Shown one piece after another: positions 3,531 to 59,931 of a DNA stretch of 64,000 nucleotides. Made by a program: the position numbers and the translations under genes. How positions within the stretch are numbered: the stretch's first letter is position 1; each line of letters opens with the position of its first letter. Below the pieces are notes generated by a model, which searched no databases, was not told where the DNA came from, and saw only the letters and a list, made by a program, of their open reading frames with translations. The DNA lies in the IMG/VR virus record IMGVR_UViG_3300001688_000696; one strand, given 5' to 3'. The DNA comes from a virus (Duplodnaviria; Heunggongvirae; Uroviricota; Caudoviricetes).

Positions 3531-3630
3531 TTGCAATTTCGTTGCAATATACATGCACTATTGACATATGTAAATAGTGCATGTATAATAAGTACAGCAA
3601 ACAAAAAAAACAGGAAAAACAGGAGGGAAC
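3531..3630 (+). promoter_or_regulatory. promoter/operator cassette copy 2
   Basis: Same architecture as 2411-2507: TTGCAA-N5-TTGCAA, a ~34-bp near-palindrome (acatgcactattgacatatgtaaatagtgcatgt), -35 at 3561-3566, -10 at 3585-3590, and an identical RBS caggagggaac before ATG 3631. Arm substitutions relative to copy 1 preserve the dyad symmetry. Confidence 0.7.
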
Positions 3631-4214: not shown

Positions 4215-5165
4215 ATGATGTGCGAAATGACCTGCGGAAACCAGACAAAACACTCAAATGAGGTTGCTGAACGCGAAGGGGGAACACAGGCACAACAGCA
4301 AGAAAATGTGTTCAAACCATTCAATTATGAAAGCAGCGAGATTCAGAAAATAATGGATACTGCCTATGCAAGGTGGAACTCCGGGGATTTACAAAACCTG
4401 AACTATAAAGAGTTCGTGGACGCACTTTCTCTTAGGGAAAAGATTGTCGTTGTTTTCGGCAACCTTAATTACCAGGTGTACAACGGTGGATTCGCACAGT
4501 GGCAGGGCAATGGATATGATGTTGTCGCACCGGTTTTGGTAGAGGCGCTGGGCAAGCTGCCGAAGTACGGCCCGGAAGTCGCTGCACTGGTAAAACATTT
4601 GGTCAATGAAAAAGAACGGTTTGAAAATCTTTATGCTGATTACCGGCAAGACTACGAAATGTGGGGCTGGGATATACCGCATGAGCCGGATAGAGAAGAT
4701 TTTGACGATGAAGAGTCGTATGAGGCTGCTGTTGATGAATACGAGCAGGAATTTGCCGACTGGCAGTGCGAAGTGCCGTGCGAACCAGAACTGGAATACG
4801 AGTATGAAGGGCAGGATTTGGACGAAGAATATTACTTACGTGCCGACCATCTGGCTTATGAATTAGAAGCCATCGTCAAAATGAGTGATGAGGAGCTGGA
4901 ACGGTGGTGGAATGAAACTCCATCTGTGGTTCCATCAATTGACGAAGTGCTGTTCGGCGTTCCCGCCCCAGCCCCGGCACAGCCTACAAAGCCAACGGTC
5001 AAACTGACCGGCACAGATGGCAACGTCTTTGTGGTCAAGGCGAATATGGAAGCGGCTTTGCGGGATTTCGACCGGGAAAATGGCACAAATCTCCTGGAGA
5101 AGTTCCGCTCCGAGTGGCGGCAGCAGGAGGAAAACCCGGATGCCACGTACGACAAAATGCTTTAG
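4215..5165 (+). CDS. hypothetical highly acidic protein with YNGGFAQW motif (possible DUF4375/DMP19-like DNA mimic)
   Basis: 316-aa ORF. NGGF motif recalled from DMP19/DUF4375-like proteins. Long D/E-rich segment (EDFDDEESYEAAVDEYEQEF...). Terminator downstream. Confidence 0.65.
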   Translation: MMCEMTCGNQTKHSNEVAEREGGTQAQQQENVFKPFNYESSEIQKIMDTAYARWNSGDLQNLNYKEFVDALSLREKIVVVFGNLNYQVYNGGFAQWQGNGYDVVAPVLVEALGKLPKYGPEVAALVKHLVNEKERFENLYADYRQDYEMWGWDIPHEPDREDFDDEESYEAAVDEYEQEFADWQCEVPCEPELEYEYEGQDLDEEYYLRADHLAYELEAIVKMSDEELERWWNETPSVVPSIDEVLFGVPAPAPAQPTKPTVKLTGTDGNVFVVKANMEAALRDFDRENGTNLLEKFRSEWRQQEENPDATYDKML

Positions 5166-7375: not shown

Positions 7376-7404
7376 TTGACAGGCTGCAATTTTTATAGTA
7401 TAAT
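7376..7404 (+). promoter_or_regulatory. consensus sigma70 promoter TTGACA-17-TATAAT
   Basis: TTGACA at 7376-7381 and TATAAT at 7399-7404, read directly. Confidence 0.7.
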
Positions 7405-12708: not shown

Positions 12709-12742
12709 AAAGTCCCCGGTAATCCGGGGACTTTTTGTTTTA
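12709..12742. terminator. bidirectional intrinsic terminator shared by convergent genes
   Basis: gtccccgg taat ccggggac hairpin flanked by an A-run and a T-run. Confidence 0.7.
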
Positions 12743-13975
12743 TTGCAGATTTTCGATTTCTAAGCGGATTTTCTGGAAGTCAAGGGCTTTCTGGAAATCT
12801 TCTTTTCCTTCACGCCATTTGACATTACCTTCATCGAATGCCTTTGCTAGTTCATCTCGGACTTCATCCCCGAGCTGGTGGCGTACCAGTTCCAGATACG
12901 TGTAGGCGAACAACTCGCCGTGGGCGGCGTATTTCAGGCTAATATGTTCCGGCTGGCTGTCTACCACCTGATGCGCCAGCTCGTGCAGCAAAATCATCTC
13001 GTACATATGACGGGGAGACAACCGGATGGTGTTGTTCCAGTTGCATGAAGATGATGTCAGGCTGTTGCTTTTGGTCATCTCGATGCGGATGCTCGTCTTT
13101 GGCGTTAGCCTTTTGAACCAGTTTTGAGACAGCACCTCATCGAGGTATGTGCGCGCTTCTTCCGGCGATTCAAACTTTTTCCCTACCCGGCGCAGCAGCT
13201 CGTTTTCTGCCCGGTACAATCGGATTTTCTGCATATCCCGTTTTGCCTTTTCCGGGTAAGGCTCGCTGCCAATAATCTGGTGTTCCAATGGAAGGCGGGT
13301 GTTTTTCCCGTCATTCAAGAAAAAATCAACGAACTTGCCGATGTAGACCCTGCCATTGAACATGTAGTGATAATAGGTCTTTTTCTCAAGATACGGGTTG
13401 CAGCGAGGGCAGGAAGAAATCGTCTTTTCACCGCTCGCATAGCGGGAATGATTATCTTTCCGTTCAAGCTGAACTGTCCAGCCACATTTGTTGCAGGTAA
13501 CTTTTGTGATTTCATCTCTGGGAACGAAGTCCAACAACCGGCTACAAAATTCGGTGTCGTATTTGTACTGGATTTTGTCTGTCAGGTCTTGAAGACGGTT
13601 TTTTATCTTATCAGGGAACAGGTTCGGGCGGGTTGTGCATGTTTCCTTCGCATACTGCCACATCTTGTAGGCATAAGGTGCATCTGTTTCTTTGCTGTCC
13701 GCGAAAGCAAACCCAATGTCTATCAGCTTATTGACGACATCATACAGCTCTGCTTTCGCGTCTGGGCTATCATATGCCAGCTTAGAAAGCAAATTCAGAT
13801 AGTATTGGCCGATGTTGCTGTTTTCCTGAACCTGTTTTCTATCCAAAATGGACGCACTTACATCACACAAGTACTCGAACTTGCGCAGAGAGCCTATCTC
13901 ATAGTTCGCCAAACGAGTAACATTGTTTTCTGCAAGCATATTCAAAATATTAGAGATTTTTTTCTTACATTCCAT
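12740..13975 (-). CDS. SprT/Wss1-like Zn-metalloprotease-type protein (HELAHQ ... HGELF) with Cys4 Zn-ribbon; paralog of 53778..54977
   Basis: HExxH followed 14 residues later by HGxxF. Ribbon CNKCGW...CPRCNP. C-terminal KAFDEGNVKWREGK shared with the paralog. Confidence 0.7.
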   Translation of the reverse strand: MECKKKISNILNMLAENNVTRLANYEIGSLRKFEYLCDVSASILDRKQVQENSNIGQYYLNLLSKLAYDSPDAKAELYDVVNKLIDIGFAFADSKETDAPYAYKMWQYAKETCTTRPNLFPDKIKNRLQDLTDKIQYKYDTEFCSRLLDFVPRDEITKVTCNKCGWTVQLERKDNHSRYASGEKTISSCPRCNPYLEKKTYYHYMFNGRVYIGKFVDFFLNDGKNTRLPLEHQIIGSEPYPEKAKRDMQKIRLYRAENELLRRVGKKFESPEEARTYLDEVLSQNWFKRLTPKTSIRIEMTKSNSLTSSSCNWNNTIRLSPRHMYEMILLHELAHQVVDSQPEHISLKYAAHGELFAYTYLELVRHQLGDEVRDELAKAFDEGNVKWREGKEDFQKALDFQKIRLEIENLQ

Positions 13976-14733: not shown

Positions 14734-15597
14734 ATGATGACGATGGACATTATTATTTGTGGCGATGTGTTAGATGAACTCAAGAAAATCCCAGATAGTT
14801 CAATCGACCTGATTGTTTGCAGCCCGCCGTACAACAAAGGCGGGGCAGCGCAGGGATATTTGATTGACAACGTTCTTTATTCCCACTTCCGGGACAATCT
14901 TCCTGAAGGAATCTACCAACAGTGGCAGGTGGATGTTTTGAACGAAGCCTACCGGACGGTTAAGCCGGGCGGCTCGCTGTTCTATAATCACAAAATTCGC
15001 TGGAACGATGGGGAGATTATCCATCCTTATTCATGGCTGTGCCGCACGGTCTGGAAAGTCAAGCAGGAAATCATCTGGGACAGGAAACTCGCGGCGAATA
15101 TTCGTGGCTGGCGCTTCTGGCAGACAGATGAACGCATTTACTGGCTGTACAAGCCGTTCAAGGGCAAACACGGAAATATTGGGGTGGAGTTGAAATCCAG
15201 ACATGCCTCTTTGCGTTCTATCTGGCAGATTACGCCGGAGAAAAAGAACCGCAACTCGCACCCGGCACCGTTTCCGCTGGCGCTGGCAGCCCGGATAATC
15301 TATTCGATTTTTGACGAAAAAAAGGGGAAGCACGTTTTGGATATGTTCTGCGGTTCGGGGACGACTCTACTGGCAGCGAAACTGTTAGGGCACCACTACA
15401 TTGGCATCGACAACTCCCCAGAATATGTAAAAATGGCACGGAGGCGGCTCGAACAGCCGCCCGAACACGATATAGAACGCTTCCAGCAGGAAATCGCCCT
15501 GCATAAGACCAACACCAGCTATGATGAATTCAGAAGCGCAAAGAAGTCCACGGGGCGTTATAAATCGAAGTACCGGCAGCGCCGCCAATCTTCCTGA
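14734..15597 (+). CDS. DNA methyltransferase, beta-class N6A/N4C (N-terminal SPPY motif IV, C-terminal FCGSGTT motif I)
   Basis: IVCSPPYN near the N-terminus and DMFCGSGTTLLAAKLLGHHYIGID near the C-terminus (PF01555-like order). ATG 14743 is an alternative start with better RBS spacing. Confidence 0.9.
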   Translation: MMTMDIIICGDVLDELKKIPDSSIDLIVCSPPYNKGGAAQGYLIDNVLYSHFRDNLPEGIYQQWQVDVLNEAYRTVKPGGSLFYNHKIRWNDGEIIHPYSWLCRTVWKVKQEIIWDRKLAANIRGWRFWQTDERIYWLYKPFKGKHGNIGVELKSRHASLRSIWQITPEKKNRNSHPAPFPLALAARIIYSIFDEKKGKHVLDMFCGSGTTLLAAKLLGHHYIGIDNSPEYVKMARRRLEQPPEHDIERFQQEIALHKTNTSYDEFRSAKKSTGRYKSKYRQRRQSS

Positions 15598-25985: not shown

Positions 25986-26869
25986 CATCGAAACCTGTTG
26001 AAAAAATCCTTGTAGGTGGCGATGCCCGCACGGTGCAGACAGTAAACAAATTTTGTCTCTTGTTGCGGGTTGTCACGATTGCTAGTAGACAGGAAATAGA
26101 GACAGTACCGGCAATTCAAAGCCAATCCCCATTTGATATGTTTTAGGCAGGTCGTGTTATTTTCCTGCAAGGGGCAGCCCATTACAACCCAATCGTTCAG
26201 CGAATCATTGAAGTTGACTGCCCTCTGGTCAGCCATTGATGCCATCGTTACCCAGATTTGTTCTGGCATCGGATTGTTCAACCAGTTCATCATGCGCACC
26301 GGATTGGTGAGGATTTTGGCAAGTTCCTGACGGTCTGGAAAATGTCTAAGACGATGTAAATCGACCTCAATCGCCGGCCAACCGTTTTGCTCAATGATGC
26401 GAAGTTTTTCCCGCCCAACGCGGTGAGTGACGTAGATTTCAAGCAGCAGTGGTTCGCCAGCGGAAAAGATAACGATGTCCGGGACAATCCTACCCAGTCT
26501 GGTTTCCAGCGCCACTTCGTCAATTTTGACTTCGATTTTTTCGTCTTTACGAAAGGTGCGATATACCCGGCGAAAGTAAACGCTGCGACCAGAACGGGTG
26601 AAAAACGATAAAAATTCAATCCCGTATCCCGGAATAAAAATGGTTTTTTGCTGGCTGAGGATTTCTTTCGTCAGAAGGTGCAGTGTGGTTTCGCCAGCCC
26701 ATTCGCATTCCGGCGAATTGAGATGGGCGAAGTGATGGATTTTGATGCTCCCCTTACGGGCGACCAGCGGGGCGTTGCAGGTGGGGCAGATGCACTGACA
26801 GGCAGCTCCGCTTTCGACTTCAGAGATATGAACCAGCTTGCCGTTTTTTAGGCCATAGGGAATTTTCAT
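25967..26869 (-). CDS. CoiA-like competence protein family nuclease
   Basis: N-terminal CICPTCNAPLVARKGSIKIHHFAHL, matching the CoiA signature recalled from memory. The 3' end overlaps the tRNA-Glu 3' end by ~19 nt on the opposite strand. Confidence 0.6.
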   Translation of the reverse strand: MKIPYGLKNGKLVHISEVESGAACQCICPTCNAPLVARKGSIKIHHFAHLNSPECEWAGETTLHLLTKEILSQQKTIFIPGYGIEFLSFFTRSGRSVYFRRVYRTFRKDEKIEVKIDEVALETRLGRIVPDIVIFSAGEPLLLEIYVTHRVGREKLRIIEQNGWPAIEVDLHRLRHFPDRQELAKILTNPVRMMNWLNNPMPEQIWVTMASMADQRAVNFNDSLNDWVVMGCPLQENNTTCLKHIKWGLALNCRYCLYFLSTSNRDNPQQETKFVYCLHRAGIATYKDFFNRFRCLPKRI

Positions 26870-26922: not shown

Positions 26923-26950
26923 TTGACAAAACTAGCAAATTGCATATAAT
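26923..26950 (+). promoter_or_regulatory. sigma70 promoter TTGACA-16-TATAAT
   Basis: TTGACA at 26923-28 and TATAAT at 26945-50. Shares the 14-nt ATATAATTATCCAC motif with the promoter region at 62390. Confidence 0.6.
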
Positions 26951-46206: not shown

Positions 46207-46397
46207 CCAATGCGCTCCTTTTTCAAAACACTTTATTACTATATAGTAGGACGAAAAAGGGGGGGGATTTTACCGTTTAGTCCAAAATTAATCTCCCATT
46301 AAATGAAAATGAAACAAACCAGTTGAATTCGTCTAATAATCGTCATTAAAACGCATATGTTTTTTTGTCAGACATTTTTAGTAGAGAAAGGAATACC

Positions 46398-48089
46398 ATG
46401 AGGGATATTCTTTGGAAGCAAGCTGGAATACTGATTCTCCTACTGATTGCCTTATTTTTACTTTTCGACAATCAGCCCTCTCAAGTCGTCTATGCCGGTA
46501 GCGAAGCCTGCGGGTCGGGGCAGACCTGTTATTCTAGCTTCAGTTATTCGGATGTAACGTCATGTACGGCTGTTTATCGTTGTGCTGGTTGCAATCCTCT
46601 ATACCAGTGCAATAATGCTGGTACGACTACCAAAACCGCTTCGTGTAATACATCTAGCGGACACTGTGAAACATCCTATACCCGCTTTTACTGCGATGGG
46701 TACGGTTCACAAACGGGAAACTGCCCACGACTTACCACCACTGACAGCCGCGGTTGCTGCGGTTCTGGTGGCAGCGGCGGTGGCGGAGGAGGCGACAGTG
46801 GTGGCGGCAGTGGATGTACGATGGTCGTCCCCACCGGGCTAAAGGTTATCGGTACTCAAATTTCGTGGAATTCAATTCCTGGGGTAACGCAATATGATGT
46901 TCGCATCGATGATATGACTGCGAATGGCTGGAATGGTGATTGTGGTGCGCCATTATCCGGCGACTATTGTGTTAACCGATATGCCAGCACAACAATGTCA
47001 TGGAATTTTGTATCGGGGCATACATATCACGTGTGGGTACATGCCCGCATGTGTGGCGGCGTTACCGATGCGGTTCACCTAACCGGAGTGATGATTCTTC
47101 CGAAAGTAACCGGTATCAAAGTTACCTGTGCGGCTGATGCAAAAAAGGCGACTGTTACCTGGAATGCCATTAGTGGCGCAAGCCAATATCAGCTCCGGGT
47201 GAATGTTGACCCTGTATCACAGTGGGCGGGCTGTCCGGCTGCGGGCTGCGACCCAAACGATTATTCGAATTATTACACAACGAATTCGGCTACAATTTCA
47301 ACAACGCCCAATTCACCATTCCAGGTCAATGTCCAGGCTATAAAAAGCGGGGAAACGTATCCATACCCAGCGCCGTGGTCGGACTGGATTAGCGCCAAGT
47401 GTGTTCCTGCCACACCGACAAGGACGCCGACACGCACACCAACGCGGACTCCAACTCGCACACCAACGCGGACTCCGACTCGCACGCCGACACGCACGCC
47501 GACTCGTACTCAGCCGCCTCCGGCAACCAACACGCCGACCCGGACACCGACTTCGGCGGCAACCGCCACACCTTATCCAAATGAGATAGTTGGGTCTATC
47601 TCTGCTGGTTTGCTGCCCGCTTACCAATGGAACGCCAGAGATGCCGACCCGGTGCTGAACCTGCCCACTTTTAACTTGGAGGTTCGCAACTACTACTTGA
47701 CTGACAAGATTTACATCAAGTTGGATGCGCCAGTTGGCAATTTCTACACCTATGTCTTAACTGGTGATGATGTTACGGCTTTAGGGCTTCCTTATGATGC
47801 TGCGACACATACGCTGACATTGAACGCCACACCAGAACTCATGGATGCGATTGAAAGACAGGTCGGCGCAATGGATGGTCTTACACCGCTAAGTCGCTGC
47901 CCGGTTAACCGGAATCGGTTGTGTTGGGGAACAACAATTGGTTCAAAACGCGACGATACTTTCACCAAGCCATCAGATGCGATTGGTGAATGGACAATTT
48001 CGGTTTGGGCTGAACATATCAGCGGTGTCCAGTCAAACACAGTAACGGGCACGTATAGAGTTACCACAACGCTCATCGGAGAGCATTAG
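46398..48089 (+). CDS. secreted Cys-rich protein with Gly-rich and (PTRT)n linkers, FN3-like domains and shared C-terminal CWGTT domain
   Basis: ATG 46398 with RBS aaagga. Signal-like TM. Linkers GSGGSGGGGGGDSGGGSG and TPTRTPTRTPTRT. C-terminal PVNRNRLCWGTTIG...KPSDAIGEWTISV. Confidence 0.75.
   Translation: MRDILWKQAGILILLLIALFLLFDNQPSQVVYAGSEACGSGQTCYSSFSYSDVTSCTAVYRCAGCNPLYQCNNAGTTTKTASCNTSSGHCETSYTRFYCDGYGSQTGNCPRLTTTDSRGCCGSGGSGGGGGGDSGGGSGCTMVVPTGLKVIGTQISWNSIPGVTQYDVRIDDMTANGWNGDCGAPLSGDYCVNRYASTTMSWNFVSGHTYHVWVHARMCGGVTDAVHLTGVMILPKVTGIKVTCAADAKKATVTWNAISGASQYQLRVNVDPVSQWAGCPAAGCDPNDYSNYYTTNSATISTTPNSPFQVNVQAIKSGETYPYPAPWSDWISAKCVPATPTRTPTRTPTRTPTRTPTRTPTRTPTRTPTRTQPPPATNTPTRTPTSAATATPYPNEIVGSISAGLLPAYQWNARDADPVLNLPTFNLEVRNYYLTDKIYIKLDAPVGNFYTYVLTGDDVTALGLPYDAATHTLTLNATPELMDAIERQVGAMDGLTPLSRCPVNRNRLCWGTTIGSKRDDTFTKPSDAIGEWTISVWAEHISGVQSNTVTGTYRVTTTLIGEH
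47414..47510 (+). repeat. 12-nt tandem repeat (~8 units) encoding (PTRT)n
   Basis: ccgacacgcaca / ccaacgcggact units, read directly. Confidence 0.8.
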
Positions 48090-48098
48090 CCCTCAAAA

Positions 48099-48175
48099 AA
48101 GAAACCGCCCATCATCAAAAGGTGGGCGGTTTCTTTTTCTTATTAAAGAAAAAATGCCCTTGCGGGCATTTTTCG
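48099..48175 (+). terminator. two tandem intrinsic terminators
   Basis: gaaaccgccca...tgggcggtttc + T, then atgccc ttgc gggcat + T. Confidence 0.75.
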
Positions 48176-48177
48176 AG

Positions 48178-48490
48178 ATGTGCGGACTAGGCGCGTCCCC
48201 GCTCCATCTCACGCCGGAATAGCCACGGCTTTCAGGACTCTGCCTCTCGTGGACTTGCCTTCACCGACGTACCGAGCACACCATGGTTCCACCGCACTGT
48301 CCGATAAGGCAGACCTTACGGTCTTCGAAACCTTATCGTAAGGCAAACATCTCCGCGGGGCATCTAACCGGATTTAGTTTGCCATGCCTCCGAGTTCGCG
48401 TAACCGCGCCCTACCTCGGAGTGTCCTCGACCCCACACCCGGCAAGTATCGTAGTTATCGGTGTCCTACGCATTCCGACTTCCGGACTTA
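48178..48490. ncRNA. GC-rich highly structured non-coding region (candidate structured RNA, family unknown)
   Basis: Multiple nested helices, e.g. ccgataagg[c agacc ttac ggtct tcgaaa]ccttatcg, and cctccgag[ttcgcg taac cgcg]...ctcggag. No credible ORF. Strand undetermined. Confidence 0.3.
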
Positions 48491-48792
48491 TCTGTTTGTA
48501 AGGTTCTGAATTGATATATTTATTATACATGCTTTTTTGCGAATTGTCAAGAGCGAAAATGCATTTAATGCCAATTCATTCGAGATTTTTTCTCGAATTG
48601 CGAATGAGATTTCCGCCCGGATTGCCGGTGAAATCGTTTTTTTTAGTGGAATGTGGAAAATGCACTCGGCGGAGCAAAGAAAGCGCCAGGGAAATGGGGA
48701 GCGTCCGTTCATGGTAGCGCCAGCCCATATCACGCGCTGTTGCAAAGGACTAACAGCGCCAAGTTTCGTGCGTGGTTTGGTGACAGCAAAAT

Positions 48793-48825
48793 AAAAAGAC
48801 CAGCGGTTTGCTGGTCTTTTTTTTC
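48793..48825. terminator. bidirectional intrinsic terminator
   Basis: agaccagc ggtt gctggtct + T8. Confidence 0.8.
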
Positions 48826-48838
48826 AAAAGTTGCTGCA

Positions 48839-49912
48839 TCAATCCGCATCGAAATTTAGCAACTGTTCGATTTTGTCCGCCACTTCCGGGCTGATGACTT
48901 TAGCGATTTGTTCCTTCAAACTTAAATCATCCCATTCGCACATAAGCTCGGCGCGCCTTTCTTCAGCGCCTTCGCCATAAATAGTGGAAAAGTTTGCCCG
49001 ATGGATGGAGTAGATAATTTTTTCGAGTTCCAAAACATTGATATGCGGCTTTGTTGGGATATTAGAAACTCCATAGTCAACCAGGTCATATGGTGTGATA
49101 TTCCCAAAGCTGAAGTGCTGCCGCTCGCCGTTCTCGACAAAAAAATTAACCCGCTCATTCATACTGTTGATGAAATAGGAATAGCCGTTTTTTTCTGTCA
49201 AAATCCGGTCGAACTCATCGCTGACCTCTTTGACCTTCTGGATATATCTATCAACCTTGCTTCCATAGCATTTCTTTGCAGCGAAAGCCATCCGCCCGTT
49301 ATGTCCGAAATCTCCGCCAATAGAATGCAAATCAATGCCAAGCTGGGTCATGGCGATTTTGTCGCCGTAATTCAGGGCGTACTCACGGATTTCGTCACCG
49401 GATGCGTTCCGGGGCAGGCGGGGTATCCACCAGCGTTTTGTGTTTTTGCCAATCTTTTTCCATCCTTGACCTTTGATGAAATAATCCGGGTCGCTCGCTT
49501 CAACCGGGATGTACTGCTGCGTACTCTTATCGTAAACAGCCAGAATTTCCTTTTCTGTGACCGTTGCCATGCCATTCGGCCAAAAGTTTCCCCTGACACC
49601 ATCGGTATCTTTTTCCGGGTCATATTTCCGCCGTTCCACGCCGCGCAACTGGCGGAACTGGTTGACCATTTTCAATTCCAGCAAAGCAAATGGCTTTTTG
49701 GCAAAATCATCCTTTTCCAACTTGCCATATTCAGAACGAACCATCTCGATAATGGCTTCAAGCGTTTGTGGGTCTTTGATATTTGCGGTTGCCGCAGAGA
49801 GATTGTCAACGCTGAAATTCAGTGCCTTATCCAGCTCCGCCCACATCGCTATATCTTCATCAGAACGGTGGGTTTCAAAATTCTTTTTGAATTCCTGATA
49901 AGCTTTTTGCAA
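48839..49912 (-). CDS. hypothetical protein; N-terminal part separated in another frame (50063..49966) by a homopolymer frame change
   Basis: Main ORF has only a TTG start. Upstream ORF MKCRKQVKELQKTFASSGTMVAKAAALKGEKVR* has RBS aagga. They meet at ctgaagggggaaaaagta (G5A5; plus strand T5C5 at 49973-49982). Deleting one G gives ...AALKGKKYDNEALKFFAGYL... in frame. Same orientation as, and directly downstream of, the methyltransferase at 50116. Confidence 0.6.
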   Translation of the reverse strand: MQKAYQEFKKNFETHRSDEDIAMWAELDKALNFSVDNLSAATANIKDPQTLEAIIEMVRSEYGKLEKDDFAKKPFALLELKMVNQFRQLRGVERRKYDPEKDTDGVRGNFWPNGMATVTEKEILAVYDKSTQQYIPVEASDPDYFIKGQGWKKIGKNTKRWWIPRLPRNASGDEIREYALNYGDKIAMTQLGIDLHSIGGDFGHNGRMAFAAKKCYGSKVDRYIQKVKEVSDEFDRILTEKNGYSYFINSMNERVNFFVENGERQHFSFGNITPYDLVDYGVSNIPTKPHINVLELEKIIYSIHRANFSTIYGEGAEERRAELMCEWDDLSLKEQIAKVISPEVADKIEQLLNFDAD

Positions 49913-50115
49913 AGCTGCACTATAAACGGGCAGATAGCCAGCGAAAAATTTCAGCGCCTCGTTATCGTACTTTTTCCCCCTTCAGCGCGGCAGCCTTAGC
50001 AACCATAGTGCCGGAACTGGCGAAGGTTTTCTGCAACTCTTTAACTTGCTTACGACATTTCATGATTTTTTATCCTTTGATATTTGGATGATAGCAAGCA
50101 AAAAGCCGCCTATTT

Positions 50116-50874
50116 TCAGGCGGCCTTTTCCAGTCTATTTTTTGCCAGCTCAAACGAAGTCGGGTCAATTTCAACCCCGATAAAATTTCTACCAGTCTGT
50201 CTGGCAACCAGACCGGTTGTACCCGAACCCATAAACGGGTCAAGGACGGTCACGCCGACCCAACTGTACAGCTTGATGCAGCGGTAGGGGAGTTCTTCCG
50301 GGAAGGGAGCGTTGTGCCCCAACACATTTTTTCCTTTTGAATTGATTTTGACCTTGCCGGGGAACGACCAGACCGATTTGGTGAATTTTGCAAATTCTTC
50401 TTTGGTCAGGTCGCTGACGCCTTTCGTCATCAACTTTCGCTGCATCTTATAAAACACGAAAACAAACTCATGGTCAGGTCGCACCGATGGGCAGGACGGA
50501 GATTTAAACGACCCCCATGCAGTGCTACCTACATGGTTCGGCTTGTACCAGATGTGAGTTGCCCGCCACATCCAGCCAAGATGAATGATTTTGGGAAACA
50601 GCTCCCAGATATTCCAGCGGTTTTCGCCGTTACTGGTGCTTTCAGGCAGGTTCAGGCACAGCCGGCCACCCGGCTTTGTCACCCGGTAAATCTCAGCCAA
50701 ACGCTCCAGCAGCCAACAGAAATAAGTGGTCGCCGAACGGTTGTCGTCAAAAGTTTTGTAATCTATCCCTACGTTGTAGGGTGGACTGGTCACAGTCAGG
50801 TCAACCGTGTCGGCTGGCAGCCCCTTCAGAATATCCAGGCAATCTCCCAAATAAAGTTGGCATGTCGTCGTCAT
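50116..50874 (-). CDS. DNA methyltransferase, beta-class N6A/N4C
   Basis: N-terminal LTVTSPPYNVGIDY. C-terminal DPFMGSGTTGLVARQTGRNFIGVEID. Confidence 0.9.
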   Translation of the reverse strand: MTTTCQLYLGDCLDILKGLPADTVDLTVTSPPYNVGIDYKTFDDNRSATTYFCWLLERLAEIYRVTKPGGRLCLNLPESTSNGENRWNIWELFPKIIHLGWMWRATHIWYKPNHVGSTAWGSFKSPSCPSVRPDHEFVFVFYKMQRKLMTKGVSDLTKEEFAKFTKSVWSFPGKVKINSKGKNVLGHNAPFPEELPYRCIKLYSWVGVTVLDPFMGSGTTGLVARQTGRNFIGVEIDPTSFELAKNRLEKAA

Positions 50875-53777: not shown

Positions 53778-54977
53778 ATGGAGTGCAAAAACCGGATAAA
53801 ACATGCAGTTGAGCGAGTAAAAGAAAGCGGCGGAGTGAATGCCGAGCAAAGTAAGGCTCTGGACGAACTGTTTTCCCCGTTTTCCAGTTTTACAGACGTG
53901 CGCAGGTACATTCTCGCAAAGGAAAACCTGCGCCGCAGCAACAATTCATGGCGCGTGTTTCAAGCCCTGCTGTTTACCGCCCAAATAGATGCAGAGATAA
54001 AAGAACAGTACCAAAAAGTTATCGAGGAGATGATTGGCGCGCTCAAAGATTATCTGGACGGGGCGAACAGTGATTACGAATATGCGACCGTTCTCAAAGA
54101 CCTGCTTTCCAGCCTGCACAACAGCCAGAAATTTTTTGCCAATGGGCAGGAAGTTTATCTTTCCCGTTCCGAATTTGACCAGCTCACTGAAATGCTTCCG
54201 AAGCTGGAAAAGAAAGTCAAGGAAGATTACGGAAACAGCCTGTGTGTGACGCGGTGCAAAAAGTGTGGCTGGCAAATTGGCATCCCCAAAAAATACGGAA
54301 TTCATGGAATGAACGATGTGGATGCCTGTCCCAACTGCACGCCTGGACTTCCGGTAAGCACCCGCTGCGAGCAGGAGAGCGGAGACAACTATCTGGTTGG
54401 TAAGTTCGGTGTTTTCTATCTGGACAGGAAGCCCTACCCGTACCTCCATGAGGTCAAAAAAATTGTCCCAATACCGAAAAAAGTTAACTTTACACCCCGT
54501 GACCACCAAAAAGGGCGGATGTATAGTGCAGAGGCCAGATGTGAAATTAAGCAGGATGGCATCCAGTTTCAAAGTTTGGAAGAAATGCAGGCGTATACAG
54601 ATGAACTGGTCTCATCCGATGAATTCCGCAAGCAGTTCGGGGGCGTTGGGCATTTATCGGTGATAAGCAATGAAAACCGAAGCGAATCCTATGCCATGGT
54701 GGATAGCGGCATCATTGCCATTGCCAATTCCATGAAAAATGAATACGTACTTCTGCACGAAATTGCCCACCACATCCTGTGGAACCAGCCGACTTACATC
54801 AAAAATAACCAGCAGCAGCACGGAGCGCTGTACGCCTATATTTTGCTGAAACTCGTGCGCATGAAAATGGGAGACCGTGTGGCAGACAAGCTGGCGAAGG
54901 CTTTTGACGAAGGAAAAGTCAAGTGGCGGGAAGGCAAGCCATTGTTTGATGAAATGCAGCAGGTTATCGTTTATTGA
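53778..54977 (+). CDS. SprT/Wss1-like HExxH protein with Cys4 Zn-ribbon; paralog of 12740..13975
   Basis: LLHEIAHHIL...HGALYAY. Ribbon CKKCGW...CPNCTPG. C-terminal KAFDEGKVKWREGK. RBS gaggt. Confidence 0.7.
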   Translation: MECKNRIKHAVERVKESGGVNAEQSKALDELFSPFSSFTDVRRYILAKENLRRSNNSWRVFQALLFTAQIDAEIKEQYQKVIEEMIGALKDYLDGANSDYEYATVLKDLLSSLHNSQKFFANGQEVYLSRSEFDQLTEMLPKLEKKVKEDYGNSLCVTRCKKCGWQIGIPKKYGIHGMNDVDACPNCTPGLPVSTRCEQESGDNYLVGKFGVFYLDRKPYPYLHEVKKIVPIPKKVNFTPRDHQKGRMYSAEARCEIKQDGIQFQSLEEMQAYTDELVSSDEFRKQFGGVGHLSVISNENRSESYAMVDSGIIAIANSMKNEYVLLHEIAHHILWNQPTYIKNNQQQHGALYAYILLKLVRMKMGDRVADKLAKAFDEGKVKWREGKPLFDEMQQVIVY

Positions 54978-55860: not shown

Positions 55861-56640
55861 CTACTTTGTGCTTTTAATTCTGTTTTGGGCAATTTCACAA
55901 TAATCCGGGCAGCGTTCAATTCCGAGATAATTGCGCCCGAGCTGTCTAGCAGCCAGGGCGGTCGTCCCCGCCCCCAAAAATGGGTCAAGTACGAGGTCGC
56001 CCACGTAGGAATAATACTCAACCACCTTTTGCGCCAGTTCCAGTGGGAAGGGGGCAGGGTGCCCGACTTTACAGGGGTTTTCCGGGCGGATTTGCCATAC
56101 GTTTGTACGCTCATAGCCGTCTGCAACCAACGAAGCCTGAATAATCTCTGGACTGTGGTCACGAATAGCCAAATCCAGCAGCCCATACCCCCTTTTGAAA
56201 ACCAGCAGGTATTCTGTCACCTGAAACGGCTTGTAGGCAACCGGGCGGCGGTGATGAGCGAACTTGATAGCCCGATTGGATGCCCCATCCGGTTTTACCC
56301 AGATGATGTCATCCACGAATTTGAATCCTGTCTGTGTGGCAATCGGCAGGTAATCGAAAGGGATGGCAAGCCGGGTTGATTCGGTTGAACGCTTTTCGCG
56401 GGGGACAATTACGCAGGACAGGTTGATGACAAAAATGCGATTATCCTTCAAAACCCGGAAAACTTGCTTAGTAACCTGCGACAAAAAATCCAGATACTCC
56501 TGATAGGTGGAATAGCTGGCATACTGCTGGCGGGCGTTGAAGTACGGCGGGCTGGTAAAGCACAAATCAACACAGTTATCGGGCATGGACTTCATCACTT
56601 CCACACAATCGCCCTGAATGATTTGATTGGTCAAATCCAT
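55861..56640 (-). CDS. DNA methyltransferase, beta-class N6A/N4C
   Basis: ATG 56640 with RBS aggagg. N-terminal DLCFTSPPYF. C-terminal DPFLGAGTTALAARQLGRNYLGIE. Confidence 0.9.
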   Translation of the reverse strand: MDLTNQIIQGDCVEVMKSMPDNCVDLCFTSPPYFNARQQYASYSTYQEYLDFLSQVTKQVFRVLKDNRIFVINLSCVIVPREKRSTESTRLAIPFDYLPIATQTGFKFVDDIIWVKPDGASNRAIKFAHHRRPVAYKPFQVTEYLLVFKRGYGLLDLAIRDHSPEIIQASLVADGYERTNVWQIRPENPCKVGHPAPFPLELAQKVVEYYSYVGDLVLDPFLGAGTTALAARQLGRNYLGIERCPDYCEIAQNRIKSTK

Positions 56641-56749
56641 CTGCAATCGAGCCTCCTGCAAGGAGGACGCGCAGAAGGGTGGATAAACAAAAAGTTCCAC
56701 CGTTTAGGTGGAGCTTTAAATAGGGCTGGCAGGTCGCCGGTTTGCTTGG

Positions 56750-59004: not shown

Positions 59005-59094
59005 TGCAGGTTATCCACACAAATGTGGATAACCTTGCCGCCCAAAAATTGAGCAACGGCGGTGTCACGCGTCTTTCTCCATATCAACCAAAAA

Positions 59095-59931
59095 ATGATG
59101 ATGGAGAGAACCGTGGATACTTGCCTGTATTGTGATGATTGTCTTAATGTTCTCAAAAATTTTTCCCACCAGCCGACTTTGACCTTTTTCGACCCACCGT
59201 TTAATGTCGGAAAAAAATATTACATGCACAATGACAACATGCCCGATGAAGAATATTGGGCATGGATGAGCGAAATCCTTTCGCTTATTCGCAAGCACAC
59301 GCTGCCGGGCGGAAGCATTTATTTCATGCAGCGGGAGAAGAACGCTCACAAGGTGATTGAAACCCTGCTAAAGACCGGGTGGACGTTCAAAAACATGATT
59401 ATCTGGAAGAAGATGACTTCAGCCACCCCGATGACGACCGGATTTGGAAAAAGCTATCAGGTCATCGTTTATGCGACCAAAGGGGAAAAACCGAGGGTTT
59501 TCAACCGTCTGCGCATCGACCCGGAGTTGAAGCCCCACCAAAAGGTTGCTCGCAAAAACGGAATTTTTGTCACGGATGTCTGGGACGATATTCGTGAAAT
59601 GACTTCCGGGTATTTCGCCGGGGCTGAACAGCTCAAAAATGAAAATGGGAAAATGGCGCATCACCAGCAGTCGCCAATCGCCCTTCTGGTTCGCATCATC
59701 CTGTCATCGTCCATGCCTGGAGACGTGGTGTTCGACCCGTTTTCCGGCACCGGCACAACCGTAGTCGCAGCCCGCCAGCTCCGCCGCATTGGAGTCGGGG
59801 TTGAGTGCGACCCGCATTACATGGAACTCATTCAAAAGCGTCTGGCTGACCAGCGGGACTGCGACCGGGTTGACCAGTACCGGGCTGATTACAAACACAC
59901 CCCGAATTTGGAAAAAATTTGGGGGGACTAA
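59095..59931 (+). CDS. DNA methyltransferase, beta-class N6A/N4C
   Basis: N-terminal LTFFDPPFNVGKKY. C-terminal DPFSGTGTTVVAARQLRRIGVGVE. The track start 59062 is GTG. Confidence 0.9.
   Translation: MMMERTVDTCLYCDDCLNVLKNFSHQPTLTFFDPPFNVGKKYYMHNDNMPDEEYWAWMSEILSLIRKHTLPGGSIYFMQREKNAHKVIETLLKTGWTFKNMIIWKKMTSATPMTTGFGKSYQVIVYATKGEKPRVFNRLRIDPELKPHQKVARKNGIFVTDVWDDIREMTSGYFAGAEQLKNENGKMAHHQQSPIALLVRIILSSSMPGDVVFDPFSGTGTTVVAARQLRRIGVGVECDPHYMELIQKRLADQRDCDRVDQYRADYKHTPNLEKIWGD

Follow-up and report, generated by a model that had tools for sequence, protein, structure and literature searches.

The GC-rich block at positions 48178-48490 of the 64,000-nt stretch of viral DNA analysed here (the window) is probably a stand-alone gene, read on the minus strand, for a folded non-coding RNA of about 335 nt, an orphan without a match to any known RNA family. 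As read from the signals in the DNA, the unit shows a minus-strand promoter, followed by the predicted RNA of approximately 335 nt (from 48515 to about 48175) and then by two terminators. The most likely role of this RNA, which we infer from its features and surroundings, is to act in trans as a stable, abundant scaffold or decoy for protein rather than as a messenger.

The G+C content of the block is 57.8%, against a mean of 47.5% (standard deviation 4.7) for segments of the same size, which places it at the 99.3th percentile. The adjoining flanks have 42% and 35% G+C, in agreement with the initial annotation, which had placed the GC content far above that of the flanks; an AT-rich stretch lies on the right side of the block in window coordinates. 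Its minus strand contains 108 G and 73 C (32% and 22%); an excess of G over C is usual for structured RNAs, and the opposite is atypical. No ORF with a ribosome-binding site was found in the block, no ORF longer than 20 aa is present on the RNA strand in any start context, and the ENA, JGI and Logan pipelines called no gene inside the block on any of the nine contigs checked, all of which bears out the earlier impression that there is no plausible ORF. The longest open frame, of 92 aa, is antisense to the RNA. It has no relatives among 5.8 billion proteins, and a HMMER search of 1.8 billion representatives returned one repetitive 552-aa protein at 26% identity, a match that we judged to be spurious. 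No frame of the block resembles a protein. A replication origin was also considered and rejected, there being no GC-skew switch.

A consensus scan located a promoter of the sigma-70 type, TTGACA-17-TATAAT, with a 12/12 match at 48550-48522 on the minus strand (−35 hexamer at 48545..48550, −10 hexamer at 48522..48527), pointing into the block. To the left of the block lie two intrinsic terminators, both predicted to act in either direction; their stems, of 10 bp and 16 bp, are perfect and flanked by A- and T-runs. The first, T1 (48143..48174, minus strand), has its hairpin at 48174-48149 and comprises the stem-loop GAAAAAUGCCC-GCAA-GGGCAUUUUUU and a U-rich tail; its stem, of 10 bp by inverted-repeat count, has 11 bp in the predicted fold (pair probability, P, 0.88), and sRNA models of Rfam align to it with their own terminator stems. 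The second, T2 (48096..48138), has a perfect 16-bp stem and also ends the convergent plus-strand ORF 46365-48089. The predicted RNA body thus spans 48175..48515, its ends being set by the promoter and the terminator. We number the RNA from the likely start at 48515, 7 nt past the −10 hexamer, such that nt n corresponds to window position 48516-n, nt 341 to 48175 and the T1 hairpin to nt 342-367.

The initial annotation had placed the block between tandem terminators and the next promoter. The tandem terminators are indeed present, with perfect stems; the promoter is no plus-strand element downstream of the block but lies on the minus strand and fires into it. Because this 12/12 promoter points inward, we interpret the terminators and the promoter as the two ends of one minus-strand unit, with T1 and T2 as its own stop signals; the initial annotation had read the unit on the wrong strand.

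The promoter at 48550 is made more credible by the fact that it is part of a family of consensus promoters in the window. Eight perfect promoters of the form TTGACA-16/17-TATAAT are present in the 64 kb (2424-2467, 3561-3589, 7376-7404, 21230-21258, 26923-26950, 44338-44310, 62342-62315 and 48550-48522), as are seven with 11/12 matches; by our estimate about 0.02 perfect matches would be expected by chance. The site at 2424-2467 is a divergent, overlapping pair of promoters around the palindrome TTGACATATGTCAA. Both tRNA arrays of the window have a consensus promoter upstream, and downstream of several of the other promoters a ribosome-binding site and an ATG occur at a distance of no more than about 40 nt. 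Unlike those inspected, the promoter at 48550 has neither a ribosome-binding site and ATG nor a tRNA array downstream. For an uncultured element, such a promoter family is in itself striking.

The spacer of the RNA-gene promoter is polymorphic at 48533, where an A-run varies in length: contigs L001, L002 and L005 have a spacer of 16 nt, and the window and contigs L003, L004 and L024-L027 have one of 17 nt. A direct-repeat finding brought up two copies of the motif TTTT(T/C)(G/T)CGAATTG, at 48534-48546 and 48588-48600 (54 bp apart), the first within the promoter spacer; these are the only exact copies in the 64-kb window, and an inverted repeat at 48576-48607 lies near them. The duplication of this candidate operator, with one copy inside the spacer, hints that a repressor may control expression of the RNA by way of this motif, which recurs upstream of the promoter.

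In the predicted fold of the RNA, a 5′ tail of about 40-45 nt (nt 1-45), A/U-rich and mostly unpaired, is followed by six local hairpins with pair probabilities of 0.72-0.99, all given here on the minus strand. Hairpin a (48450..48470, nt 46-66) pairs CGUAG with CUACG around an 11-nt loop (mean P 0.90). H1 (48388..48421, nt 95-128) is formed by CUCCGAG/CUCGGAG, an internal loop and CGCG-GUUA-CGCG (P 0.92-0.97), and H2 (48342..48383, nt 133-174) by GGCAAAC/GUUUGCC and then UCCG/CGGA, with a 13-nt loop (P 0.91-0.99). H3 (48302..48338, nt 178-214) consists of CGAUAAGGU/GCCUUAUCG, an internal loop UUCGA and AGACC-GUAA-GGUCU, the last of these closed by a GNRA loop (P 0.96). H4 (48223..48252, nt 264-293) has a CCACG/CGUGG stem beneath a purine-rich top of 20 nt (P 0.84), while H5 (48175..48210, nt 306-341), which T1 and T2 directly follow, stacks GAGAUG/CAUCUC and GCGGG/UCCGC below an 11-nt loop (P 0.72-0.94). 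The stems that the initial annotation had picked out by eye are all present in the sequence, and they form in the predicted fold at the probabilities given for H1 and H3, with the exception of UCCG-GAAGU-CGGA, which is absent from that fold. In the minimum-energy fold a tight four-way junction is closed by the helices 37-45/295-303 and 69-75/257-263; the long-range helices of the predicted fold reach a P of only about 0.23 and have several alternatives.

Compared with dinucleotide shuffles, the whole unit with its terminator has a folding z-score of −2.47 on the minus strand and −1.24 on the plus strand. On the minus strand nt 37-303 give z −2.38, and the hairpin cluster at nt 85-246 gives z −3.04, against −2.94 on the plus strand; nt 1-340, taken without the terminator, fold no better than the shuffles (z −0.49). 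The block is thus structured only modestly beyond chance in its hairpin core, with z of about −2.4 to −3.0, and the full length without the terminator is not significant. Judged by these folding models, the block is predicted to be structured, less dramatically than the by-eye impression would have it. We stress that the strand was chosen by the promoter and the terminators and not by thermodynamics, because on the plus strand the hairpin cluster reaches nearly the same z-score.

It is very improbable that the feature belongs to the plus strand after all, as the initial annotation had read it, and represents the 3′ UTR of ORF 46365-48089 or the leader of a small unit at 48537-48794. A hairpin with a T8 run at about 48607-48647, which precedes a possible 47-aa ORF, would suit such a reading; however, two strong terminators lie between ORF 46365-48089 and the block, the stretch 47500-49400 yielded no promoter on the plus strand, and the plus strand combines the weaker z-score of the whole unit with a C>G composition atypical for structured RNA.

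Nine contigs, obtained from JGI, ENA and Logan, carry the RNA intact at 99.6-100% identity. The source samples are JGI 3300010265-3300010277 and 3300021045 and the runs SRR259098xx and SRR359467xx. These strain variants were obtained via the cluster members of the protein encoded by the neighbouring 407-aa gene, which are 98-100% identical in protein. Variation within the RNA amounts to two SNPs in 338 nt, both in one strain (L004): C173U turns the H2 pair G134-C173 into G-U, and G235C would break a predicted pair of low probability. Divergence of the RNA equals the background of 0.2-0.7%, with no excess of conservation over the flanks. Copies this similar, all at least 99.5% identical, carry no information for or against covariation; the one stem SNP among them changes G-C to G-U.

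No more distant relative emerged. A blastn search with 11-mer words against 50,697 phage records gave only three marginal matches of 27 nt (E 0.5, Riemerella phages), and blastn against 72,556 plasmids gave no match. Pattern scans of viral, metagenome and genome collections with six parts of the RNA, both exact and purine/pyrimidine-degenerate, returned only chance matches in coding genes or the same element; exact-pattern scans are insensitive, and the scan of the metagenome collection failed to recover contigs in which the RNA is present, such that these are weak negatives. For this reason the data suggest, rather than prove, that the RNA has no relatives beyond its near-identical copies. 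The upstream 407-aa protein forms one 99% cluster and has one distant relative (P0002, 42% identity); by nhmmer the RNA was absent from all six P0002 loci, and a covariance model built on the hairpin core did not find it in the three of them to which it was applied. The element bearing P0002 has a polymorphic insertion of an ISL3 transposase downstream of that gene (12376-13698 in L011/L012 versus about 8400-9500 in L013).

A block with no homologue found and no excess of conservation could be a transcribed but functionless spacer, the remnant of a decayed, GC-richer gene or of inserted DNA caught between a leftover promoter and leftover terminators. The modest thermodynamic significance, similar on both strands for the hairpin cluster, would fit such a relic, and decay does occur at this locus, since the neighbouring 407-aa gene is frameshifted in the contig of the window. 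We nevertheless regard this explanation as unlikely, if one to be taken seriously. No frame of the block is protein-like, and the 92-aa antisense frame has no relatives in either protein collection; the block has a perfect promoter and undamaged terminators; its hairpins follow one another tidily and carry GUAA and GUUA tetraloops; and the block is free of indels in all strains.

Searches for RNA families support the orphan status of the RNA. A cmscan of the whole window against Rfam 15, a search that the initial annotation had proposed for the block, found no family at gathering score in 48176-48520. With permissive filters and E ≤ 10, the region 48000-48900 returned only generic terminator hairpins, all outside the block, and the RNA alone returned nothing at E ≤ 10. 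Rfam 15 presumably includes RNase P, tmRNA, SRP, 6S, HEARO, retron msr, GOLLD, ROOL, group I/II introns and small ribozymes; the initial annotation had likewise not recognised RNase P, SRP or tmRNA by eye. We rejected a tmRNA identity, as ARAGORN found no tmRNA in the window and no tRNA-like T-arm or CCA end is visible in the RNA. RNase P RNA was rejected as well: the resemblance is confined to a local hairpin like P4, with no P1-P3, specificity domain or model score. Seen by eye only, the flanks of H4 (GGCAAGU...CUAU) locally resemble helix P4, in that GGCAAGUCCACG...CGUGGCUAU of the RNA pairs with a bulged U like GGAAAGUCCGG...CCGGCUUA of P4; here, however, the helix is a local hairpin enclosing 20 nt, whereas P4 is a long-range pseudoknot of conserved regions I and V.

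The initial annotation had proposed a structured RNA that might be a ribozyme, an omega-RNA-like guide or a retron-like msr. The general proposal stands, the block being bracketed by a promoter and terminators, non-coding, GC-rich and rich in hairpins, and the specific identities found no support: there is no Rfam match, and the retron and omega-RNA readings lose their defining partner genes, since Pfam searches of the neighbouring genes, up to about 10 kb away, and of the window's large ORFs found no reverse transcriptase, IscB, TnpB or Cas domain. A retron msr-msd was rejected because terminators and a convergent ORF, and no RVT domain, are found downstream of and around the RNA. An IscB/TnpB omega-RNA was rejected because Pfam, PHROG and NCBIfam gave no match for the upstream 407-aa protein and its P0002 relative is not accompanied by the RNA. 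We saw no evidence of catalysis in the RNA.

In a broader version of this proposal, the RNA would serve an RNA-guided enzyme as guide or scaffold, in the manner of an IscB omega-RNA or a tracrRNA, or would be a ribozyme, with its partner protein encoded elsewhere in the genome of about 400 kb. The order of parts (unpaired 5′ segment, multi-helix scaffold, 3′ hairpin, terminator) is the same as in the IscB omega-RNA (HEARO) and in single-guide RNAs, and the scan for partner genes covered the window and the neighbours, about 340 kb of the element lying outside. Several differences make this version quite unlikely. No Rfam family, presumably HEARO included, was matched at E ≤ 10, no IscB, TnpB, Cas or reverse transcriptase domain was found as described above, and the window has no CRISPR-like array; omega-RNAs, moreover, adjoin their nuclease gene inside an IS element, whereas this RNA has its own consensus promoter and lies outside any IS element with no IscB, Cas9 or TnpB nearby.

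Another reading, which we consider improbable, is that of a base-pairing regulatory sRNA, in which nt 1-45 would act as a seed that pairs with mRNAs of the host or the element, and the structured 3′ part and terminator would provide stability and bind a chaperone. The layout fits, with an unstructured A/U-rich 5′ end, a structured part and a U-tailed terminator, and so does the strong promoter of its own. At 335 nt and with six hairpins, however, the RNA is far larger than typical seed-type sRNAs, and within the 64-kb window the 5′ tail has no targets whose complementarity exceeds that of shuffled controls.

Returning to the scaffold or decoy, we favour this role because of the size of the RNA, its many independent hairpins with large loops and the anti-defence flavour of the surrounding genes. 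Host RNA polymerase with a sigma-70-type factor would start at about 48515 from the perfect consensus promoter and transcribe about 335 nt, which would fold into at least six stable hairpins behind the unpaired A/U-rich 5′ tail of approximately 40 nt; transcription would then stop at the two tandem intrinsic terminators, and the stable, structured RNA would act in trans on protein. No partner protein or target was found. By analogy, a protein-sequestering mode such as that of 6S RNA, CsrB/RsmZ or Ms1 is favoured, given that the RNA resembles these in its size of a few hundred nucleotides, its strong promoter and its terminator, with stability and abundance predicted. It differs from 6S RNA in having no rod bearing a central bubble and no Rfam match, and from CsrB/RsmZ in having no GGA motifs displayed in hairpin loops. 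Accordingly, a CsrB-like GGA sponge was rejected: by our own count there are 10 GGA against about 7 expected, mostly outside loops. We likewise rejected AGUCC as a binding motif (four copies in the RNA, estimated to be non-significant after correcting for all 5-mers), and palindromic loops as dimerisation sites, the number of which, by our own count, matches chance.

Among large structured RNAs, the closest parallels are GOLLD and ROOL. They too are stand-alone, hairpin-rich ncRNA genes in phage-like elements with tRNA arrays and no adjacent partner gene. They differ in that this RNA, at about 335 nt, is roughly half their size or less, has no Rfam match and has no demonstrated multimer-forming features. 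The RNA is probably a new family within a familiar kind, that of stand-alone ncRNA genes. A bolder possibility, to which we give distinctly less weight, is that the block encodes the first example of a new class of large structured RNAs that work as ribozymes or as RNP scaffolds or decoys. Such a class would be specific to a lineage of uncultured phage-like elements of about 400 kb and driven by an early-type consensus promoter, and the host or another part of the element would encode its partner or target. Most of the genetic content of very large phage-like elements is dark matter. If the interpretation is true, this RNA of about 335 nt, with its strong promoter, its terminators and its lack of relatives, would be a lineage-specific functional RNA. 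Earlier cases of this sort have proved to be ribozymes, guides or decoys that counter host defence. For now it is one orphan candidate among many, and over-reading it should be avoided.

The window belongs to an element of about 400 kb. A JGI contig of 399,701 bp shares the frameshifted neighbour gene of the window, and the ENA assembly ERZ27245383 has the element in two pieces, of 295,894 and 112,589 bp, which abut in the Pro-Thr repeat of ORF 46365-48089 and give a size of about 400-408 kb. In that assembly the whole genome is represented by contigs k141_34440 and k141_144. This Pro-Thr(-Arg) linker, at 47350-47540, is a 12/24-nt tandem repeat that varies between strains, and most assemblies break there. 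The element looks like a huge phage or a large extrachromosomal element; its identity as a phage is not proven, because the window has no capsid or terminase gene.

The great majority of the approximately 50 larger ORFs scanned in the window match nothing in Pfam, PHROG or NCBIfam. Proteins that could be recognised include four N6/N4 DNA methylases (14734-15597, 50116-50874, 55861-56700 and 59062-59931), with one more just outside the window, as well as a GGDEF-PAS protein and proteins with SPFH, CAP and GNAT domains. Weak matches to a Lar-like anti-restriction protein and a DMP19-like DNA mimic, at 1012-2277 and 4215-5165, both fall below the curated cut-offs. Together with the methylases, these similarities suggest a heavy anti-restriction load. 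ARAGORN identified ten tRNAs with redundant identities, in arrays at 21502-22062 (Phe x2, Ser x4) and 25682-25986 (Glu x4); among them, tRNA-Ser(GGA) at 21664-21750 was missed by Rfam at gathering score. A pair of paralogues, each about 400 aa long and encoded at 12740-13975 (minus strand) and 53778-54977 (plus strand), weakly match the HEXXH metallohydrolase family TIGR04338.

Upstream of the RNA, the 407-aa gene (48839-50063, minus strand) has an extra G at 49976 relative to all nine other contigs, which splits it into ORFs of 33 aa and 357 aa. This change is specific to the 399,701-bp JGI contig; it may be a genuine frameshift, or else an error of assembly in a homopolymer. AlphaFold gave only a poor model for the protein (pLDDT 63). 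No promoter or family match was found for the small plus-strand unit at 48537-48825, which the initial annotation had mentioned and in which the hairpin and T8 run described above are followed by the possible 47-aa ORF, which is basic (ATG at 48651, stop at 48794); JGI called an 85-aa gene within this interval. A bidirectional terminator at 48790-48824 ends both the possible 47-aa ORF and the 407-aa gene.
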